Below the pieces are notes generated by a model that had not been told where the DNA came from, ran no database searches, and was given only the letters and a program-made list of their open reading frames with translations. Positions 38,863-39,056 of a stretch of DNA of 64,000 nucleotides are shown here, one piece after another. A program made the translations under genes and the position numbers. Position 1 is the stretch's first letter; every line of letters begins with the position of its first letter. Location of the stretch: contig CAMLUO010000001.1 of assembly GCA_946487895.1 (NCBI GenBank), positions 41,540 through 105,539 on the forward strand, written 5' to 3'. This DNA comes from an uncultured Clostridium sp. Lineage in GTDB: Bacteria; Bacillota; Clostridia; TANB77; CAG-508.

Positions 38863-39056
38863 AAAAAAATACCCCGCCTTAGCCGTCAGATACTTGGAAT
38901 TTTTAAGGACCTGCTCCTAAAAACAGGTGGGTGCCTACCTAAATACTCCTGGGCTTCTCACTACAAACGGTGAGCTTGCACGCCATATTTATGAGATCAG
39001 CCCCTCTTATAAATTTGTTGGTTCTAAAAATTCTGTCTATACGCACTACGCAGGGA
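38863..39056. ncRNA. GC-rich, probably structured element of unknown class
   Basis: Markedly higher G+C than its surroundings. It lies between convergent genes. CCCTGC (38863-68) can pair with GCAGGG (39051-56). Internal hairpins include CTCAC-tacaaacg-GTGAG and CCTG-ctcctaaaaa-CAGG. No credible ORF. Confidence 0.3.

Follow-up and report, generated by a model that had tools for sequence, protein, structure and literature searches.

The question raised by this locus is what, if anything, is encoded in a short G+C-rich island between two convergent genes of an uncultured Clostridium sp. The stretch of DNA analysed, called the window here, is 64,000 nucleotides long. An earlier inspection of the sequence by eye (the sequence-only reading) had described the island as a candidate unclassified non-coding RNA or, failing that, as a degenerate cluster of dispersed repeats. 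The compositional starting point of that description is sound. Positions 38863-39056 have a G+C content of 43.3%, compared with 27.9% for the whole window and 15.6% for the adjacent spacer at 39060-39334, and the island is a genuine compositional feature. The setting was also correctly described: the island lies between a PepV dipeptidase gene on the plus strand and a TrhA/hemolysin-III family gene on the minus strand, and an inverted pair of repeats, GGGGACGG at 38758-38765 and its reverse complement at 38841-38848, adjoins it. The coordinates of these features, and of those introduced below, are collected in Table 1.

Further along the minus strand, at 40121-40768, lies the gene for the sporulation sigma factor SigK, two genes upstream of the RNA gene described below and on the same strand. 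The SigK reading frame is apparently unbroken, without a skin-like insertion. Because its alignment with the SigK models (NF004471, 296.5 bits) begins only at profile position 19, the customary N-terminal pro-sequence may be short or missing.

Table 1. Features of the island, its RNA and its surroundings. RNA positions are counted from nt 1 of the Rfam-delimited 6S RNA.
Feature	Position	Strand	RNA nt	Basis or remark
PepV dipeptidase gene	37283-38758	+		NCBIfam NF005591, 456 bits vs cut-off 435
Inverted doublet of the dispersed hairpin repeat (GGGGACGG pair)	38748-38857			not part of 6S
U7 tract directly after closing stem	38863-38869	-		sequence GGCGGGGUAUUUUUUU
6S RNA (SsrS) gene	38867-39059	-		193 nt as delimited by the Rfam model; RF00013 and syntenic copies
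Closing stem, 5' strand	39041-39058	-	2-19	Rfam alignment; pairs invariant or compensated in relatives
Closing stem, 3' strand	38869-38886	-	174-191	Rfam alignment, relatives
Helix P2 (downstream helix), 5' strand	39020-39030	-	30-40	Rfam structure, single-sequence MFE
Helix P2, 3' strand	38900-38911	-	149-160	Rfam structure, MFE
Central bubble, 5' strand	39006-39019	-	41-54	unpaired in Rfam, MFE and RNAalifold structures
Central bubble, 3' strand with 7-bp hairpin	38909-38928	-	132-151	RNAalifold (35 sequences), MFE
Internal stem		-	55-75 with 114-131	variable apical loop at its end
Apical hairpin	38957-38974	-	86-103	Rfam alignment, MFE, RNAalifold
-35 hexamer TTGTAA of the 6S promoter	39143-39148	-		promoter scan; relatives' alignment
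Extended -10, TGCTAAAAT	39120-39128	-		promoter scan; relatives' alignment
Putative 5' leader, about 54 nt	39060-39113	-		spacing variation; analogy to B. subtilis 6S-1
TrhA/hemolysin-III family gene	39335-40009	-		converges with pepV, island in between
Dispersed hairpin units in the window	63-125, 13109-13140, 19470-19505, 38748-38857, 55676-55709
Dispersed hairpin units in relatives (loci L001-L078), examples	L009 4452-4562, L078 4462-4534, L012 4487-4559

Class and strand of the island

6S RNA is a well-known small RNA that keeps RNA polymerase inactive in resting bacteria. When the whole 64-kb window was scanned with Rfam 15 at gathering thresholds, the 6S/SsrS family, RF00013, was the sole family to reach its gathering score. 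RF00013 matches 38867-39059 on the minus strand, and on that strand only, with 86.5 bits (E 1.1e-15). This is 40 bits over the gathering score of 46.4, and the match covers model positions 1-187 of 187, i.e., it is not truncated. The sequence-only reading had reported that signatures of 6S were absent, a statement overturned by this full-length match. It had also left class and strand undecided and had pointed to an Rfam/Infernal comparison of both strands as a way of deciding them, and that comparison settles both. All the sequence-level marks of the 6S family are present at the locus, among them a length of 193 nt, within the range of about 180-200 nt for a rod consisting of a closing stem, a large central bubble and a terminal stem-loop. 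We conclude that the minus strand from 39059 to 38867 almost certainly encodes this organism's 6S RNA (SsrS); the mature ends may differ by a few nt from the limits of the Rfam model. The main weight of the identification lies on the Rfam score, because that score encodes family-wide covariation.

Other known RNAs were also looked for. Rfam matched no riboswitch, T-box or tRNA in the 64 kb, including the gap of about 105 nt upstream of metG (35525-37177, minus strand). In a permissive Rfam scan of 38600-39400, the SRP, tmRNA and RNase P models gave no match at E<=1 on either strand, and ARAGORN returned nothing in 38000-40000. The sequence-only reading had likened a minus-strand segment, GTAGTGCGTATAGACAGAA, to part of the Alu domain of SRP RNA. 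The segment exists, as the reverse complement of 39031-39049, but in 6S it makes up the 5' strand of the closing stem. Sub-threshold matches to eukaryotic miRNAs and snoRNAs in the permissive scan fell on the long inverted repeat and were dismissed as generic hairpin matches.

To follow the locus in relatives, a PepV protein search with one genome per species was used; it yielded 80 loci, all from uncultured gut Clostridia MAGs, the best of them with a PepV of 93% amino-acid identity. Rfam matched 6S in 14 of the first 20 pepV loci, with 78-86 bits, and in every case the RNA gene converges with pepV and lies immediately downstream of it; of the six without a match, two end too early to show 6S. 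A covariance model built from the relatives' 6S sequences with the Rfam-derived structure, and run on the 80 loci, identified 33 complete and two contig-cut 6S copies. The RNA is about 91% identical across loci in which PepV is only about 60-68% identical in amino-acid sequence, hence strong purifying selection acts on the RNA. In the alignment of the 35 sequences, 87.6% of cells are paired; shifting the partners by 1-3 columns lowers this to 33-45%. Eight base pairs have changed on both sides. Covariation among relatives had been proposed earlier as a check on the island, and it is found, but it is modest within the clade because most of the 6S pairs never vary in the 35 sequences. Nt 25-44, the template region, are invariant in the clade.

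No 6S gene was found within 3 kb downstream of pepV in L012, L014, L015, L016, L035 and L037, or in most of the loci whose PepV falls below 60% identity. Some of the loci that lack a nearby 6S (L012, L014-L016) nevertheless have a PepV of about 65% identity. Thus the pepV-6S synteny is a property of part of the clade only, or the pepV genes of those loci are paralogues. The pepV-6S arrangement and the invariant template region may slightly help the annotation of related gut Clostridia MAGs.

The gene is of an already known kind, and standard Rfam-based annotation would label the locus. A textbook RNA had escaped inspection by eye, although one cmscan run is enough to identify it. The main use of the result lies in annotation: an ssrS gene on the minus strand, together with promoter, probable leader and 3' U-tract, can now be entered for the island, which is no longer unexplained.

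Structure, promoter and ends of the RNA

When the RF00013 structure was projected onto the window sequence, 45 of the 51 model pairs were standard pairs. The internal hairpins that had been picked out by eye are present and fall into place in this structure: CTCAC-tacaaacg-GTGAG at 38957-38974 is the 6S apical hairpin, and CCTG-ctcctaaaaa-CAGG at 38910-38927 lies within the 3' strand of the central bubble. The segments GGGCT (38951-55) and AGCCC (38999-39003) are present as well. The pairing that had been proposed for the ends of the island was in error. CCCTGC, which had been placed at 38863-68, is actually at 38853-38858, in the stem of the neighbouring repeat (CAGGGATT/AATCCCTG), and GCAGGG, which had been placed at 39051-56, is at 39050-39055. 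In the 6S alignment the GCAGGG strand (RNA nt 5-10, CCCUGC) pairs with CCCCGCC at 38872-38878 (RNA GGCGGGG).

De novo folding of the 35 sequences with RNAalifold recovered the closing stem, the internal stem, the apical hairpin, the hairpin in the 3' strand of the central bubble (3'-CB) and the open 5' strand (5'-CB). Helix P2 was missing from the RNAalifold consensus and was seen only in the structure guided by Rfam and in the single-sequence MFE structure; the P2 helix of this 6S RNA is weak. The 5' strand of P2 is invariant in 33 sequences. In the apical hairpin, the middle pair changes from C-G to U-A in five sequences, and the length of the loop varies. One relative (L026, 6S at 2795-3007) carries a 26-nt insertion in the apical loop, for a total of 213 nt, which fits the apical loop as the least constrained part of the RNA.

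Foldability, which had been offered as support for a structured RNA, proved to be of no help. The folding z-scores were -1.27 for the minus (true) strand and -2.24 for the plus strand, neither of them above chance relative to shuffled sequences. As evidence of class or strand, foldability was dropped, given that the energies were not significantly better than those of the shuffles and that the wrong strand did slightly better. The case for 6S is therefore carried by the covariance-model score and by conservation rather than by folding energy.

Upstream of 6S, on the RNA-sense strand, lies the sequence TTGTAA-17-TGCTAAAAT, which is conserved in 33 of 33 loci with the consensus TTG(T/A)(A/T)A-17-TGyTA(A/C)AAT. 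Judged by its sequence, this conserved element is a promoter of the sigma-A extended -10 type. Between the -10 and nt 1 of the 6S model lie usually 24-30 nt, with a range of 21-92 nt among relatives; in the window the distance is 60 nt. Because this spacing varies while promoter and RNA are both conserved, a leader that is probably trimmed away is indicated; the primary transcript most likely starts near 39113, with a leader of about 54 nt, in analogy to known 6S RNAs. In B. subtilis, RNase J1 takes an 11-nt leader off 6S-1; in E. coli, ygfA and 6S are transcribed together, and RNase E/G trims the 6S precursors (PMC10578484). A proximal promoter candidate just upstream of the mature 5' end, TAGATA-18-AATAAT, is a weak match with no comparative support, and the conserved distal promoter was preferred.

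Directly after the -10, at 39100-39119 on the minus strand, lies a box, A(T/A)AAATAACTTAA, which is kept in most of the 33 loci. From the box to the mature 5' end of 6S, the length of the sequence ranges from about 5 to about 70 nt among the loci, and the sub-clade of the window has insertions there. The sequences suggest that the box is a conserved initial transcribed or discriminator region, followed by a variable, processed leader. A conserved box at the start of the leader hints at regulation of 6S initiation or maturation.

At the other end of the RNA, the U7 tract that directly follows the closing stem is likely the 3'-end or termination signal of 6S. The arrangement GGCGGGG(N1-3)U5-8 is found at most of the relatives' 6S loci. 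The L036 group has a weaker U-tract and a separate terminator hairpin further downstream.

Alternative explanations and the neighbouring repeat

Of the alternatives to the island's being the organism's 6S gene, the one that survives best, though we consider it unlikely, is that the gene is a diverged 6S paralogue, like B. subtilis 6S-2, or a silent copy, the main 6S gene being elsewhere in the genome. The sequence at hand is 64 kb of the genome only, and some Firmicutes do have two 6S genes (PMC10578484). Neither a diverged nor a silent copy sits well with the very strong sequence conservation and the conserved strong promoter. Further, the structured 3'-CB hairpin is a trait of the 6S-1 type, the bubble of 6S-2 having been described as less structured (PMC8876501).

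It is highly improbable that the island encodes a novel structured RNA of unknown class and strand that resembles known RNAs only superficially. Such an RNA would also be expected to be G+C-rich, conserved and non-coding, and folding energy, as noted above, does not decide the strand. It would not, however, be expected to match RF00013 over its full length and on a single strand, with 40 bits more than the curated threshold, to have a promoter that points along this strand in 33 of 33 loci, and to contain all the 6S architectural elements. The earlier description of the island as a structured non-coding RNA, and not a protein gene, thus stands; the qualifier unclassified does not, the RNA being 6S/SsrS from the minus strand.

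The suggestion that the island might be a degenerate cluster of the dispersed GGGGACGG/TCCTAAAAA repeats, without a function of its own, is refuted. One such repeat does directly adjoin the island, and a stretch of the repeat, GGTCCTAAAAAT, resembles two places in it (12 nt, 83-92% identity). This likeness is confined to 12 AT-rich nt that belong to 6S P2 and the 3'-CB and are invariant in relatives. None of the seven copies of the GGGACGG repeat core in the window, nor any other GGGAC(G/A)G core, lies inside 38867-39059, and the RNA is kept in loci that have no repeat at this site (L006, L020, L022, L017, L021 and L033). Finally, the plus-strand open reading frame at 38927-39133 (68 aa, GTG start) exists as had been reported, but that it is a small protein gene is scarcely credible, given that in relatives the frame stays open for 13 to 67 codons, that indels in the apical-loop region are not multiples of three, that Pfam gave no significant match (best E 0.019, below cut-off) and that the frame runs on into unconserved, AT-rich spacer of 16% G+C. 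The reading of the island as the 6S gene is kept in what follows.

The repeat beside the 6S gene is itself an inverted repeat with 37-nt arms (38749-38785 and 38821-38857, 95% complementary). It is made up of two inverted copies of a 32-nt hairpin unit, cagggatt-AGGGGACGGTCCTAAA-aatccctg. The GGGACGG core occurs seven times in the window, compared with 0.16 expected. The hairpin units occupy narrow gaps between genes and frequently border directly on a stop codon. Of the 57 cores in the relatives' loci, 38 are in perfect hairpins of at least 6 bp. The stems (perfect, 6-13 bp) vary between species and within the window, cagggatt, atgatttt, tgagaca and ttgccaa being among those found, while the loop, (A/G)GGGGAC(G/A)G, is conserved; inverted doublets are common. 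The pepV-6S junction carries two units, as a doublet, in the window and L001, but only one in L002 and L005; other loci have another variant there, and several have no repeat at all. This variation makes the repeat a separate polymorphic element, not part of 6S.

The end of pepV (...CAG GGA TTA G, the last three codons with the TAG stop at 38756-58) lies inside the left stem of the repeat (38749-38758), so that the repeat supplies or overlaps the end of the gene. In L002 and L005, too, pepV ends within a hairpin repeat stem. As RNA, the doublet would form a 32-bp hairpin of -64.2 kcal/mol (z -8.6), a structure that could serve both pepV and 6S as a back-stop terminator or 3' stabiliser.

Apart from the dismissed sub-threshold hits, the permissive Rfam scan of 38600-39400 gave no family match to the hairpin repeat. 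Further, none of the 10 small open reading frames in the window that were tested encodes a Y1 (RAYT) transposase; their matches were to housekeeping proteins (NusB, deformylase, Pth, Asp23 and others). Classical REP palindromes have a conserved 5' GTAG and a conserved stem. The units found here are like REP/REPIN palindromes in being short hairpins in intergenic gaps that often abut stops, are often inverted doublets and are polymorphic between relatives; they differ in that the loop is conserved and the stems vary, whereas classical REPs keep the 5' GTAG and the stem. The sequences are consistent with a hairpin family in which compensatory changes alter the stems from species to species and the loop, GGGGACGG, may be kept. 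Such a family, REP/REPIN-like or recognised by a protein, could be an as yet undescribed one of uncultured gut Clostridia, and one of its copies would then have landed between pepV and 6S. We would give only a minor chance to the proposition that the 6S leader of this clade (about 15-85 nt) is both unusually long and variable in length, or that the adjacent inverted pair represents an undescribed hairpin family. The adjacent repeat is the only part of the locus with some novelty, and it might repay further study.

Proposed action and likeness to known 6S RNAs

According to previous work, the housekeeping holoenzyme is occupied by 6S RNA, which imitates an open promoter; on a nutrient upshift, the enzyme copies a short product RNA (pRNA) from the 5' bubble strand into helix P2, with refolding of 6S and its own release as the result (PMC8876501, PMC12005410). 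If the RNA described here behaves like its counterparts in E. coli (6S) and B. subtilis (6S-1), its precursor would carry about 54 nt of 5' leader, to be trimmed later, and the RNA would accumulate during slow growth. It would fill the active-site cleft of the sigma-A RNA polymerase holoenzyme as an open-promoter mimic, and sigma-A-dependent transcription would be dampened by this occupancy. With the return of nucleotides, the polymerase would begin at about C43 and copy the 5' bubble strand and helix P2; the 5' strand of P2 would be the template that is unwound in pRNA synthesis. The short product RNA, 5'-GUUGGUUCUAAAAAU..., would unzip P2, refold the 6S RNA and free the enzyme.

The pRNA of E. 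coli 6S starts at U44. In the RNA studied here, the motif GAACCAAC aligns to the RF00013 consensus GAgCCgAa, and C43 falls in the column of E. coli U44; the predicted pRNA start is accordingly placed at C43 (window 39017) from the alignment. The predicted pRNA, 5'-GUUGGUUCUAAAAAU, resembles that of B. subtilis 6S-1, 5'-GUUCGGUCAAAACUA. When the pRNA template was blocked in silico, no clean central bubble collapse helix was predicted, and the alternative fold was nearly isoenergetic (-52.3 vs -52.6 kcal/mol); no weight was given to this result.

In design, the closest characterised relative is B. subtilis 6S-1 (bsrA). Both RNAs are about 190 nt long and form a rod made up of a closing stem, P2, a large central bubble, an internal stem and an apical loop. 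In both, the 5' strand of the bubble is open and the 3' strand carries a hairpin (5-7 bp) that is already formed in the free RNA. B. subtilis 6S-1 is known for such a 3'-CB hairpin in its free form (PMC8876501), and this mark of the Firmicutes 6S-1 subtype is predicted here as a pre-formed 7-bp hairpin at nt 132-151, in the single-sequence structure as well as in the consensus. Both pRNAs are G-initiated and of similar sequence, that of the RNA described here being a prediction, and both RNAs have a 5' leader, a presumed one in our case. The differences are that the leader is 11 nt in B. subtilis, compared with a presumed length of about 54 nt here and a variable length of about 15-85 nt in relatives; that the 6S RNA described here is AT-richer; and that a clean collapse helix is not predicted for it.

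E. coli 6S (ssrS), the founding member of RF00013, shares the family model and the overall architecture. The template motif, GA(A/G)CC(A/G)A, aligns, with C43 of the RNA described here corresponding to U44 of E. coli, and sequestration of the housekeeping holoenzyme is assumed, by analogy, to be the same. The two RNAs differ in the central bubble, the 3' strand of which is unstructured in E. coli until pRNA synthesis makes a 9-bp hairpin, whereas the hairpin is predicted to pre-exist here. They also differ in gene arrangement: E. coli 6S is co-transcribed with ygfA, and the 6S gene of the window stands alone between trhA and pepV.
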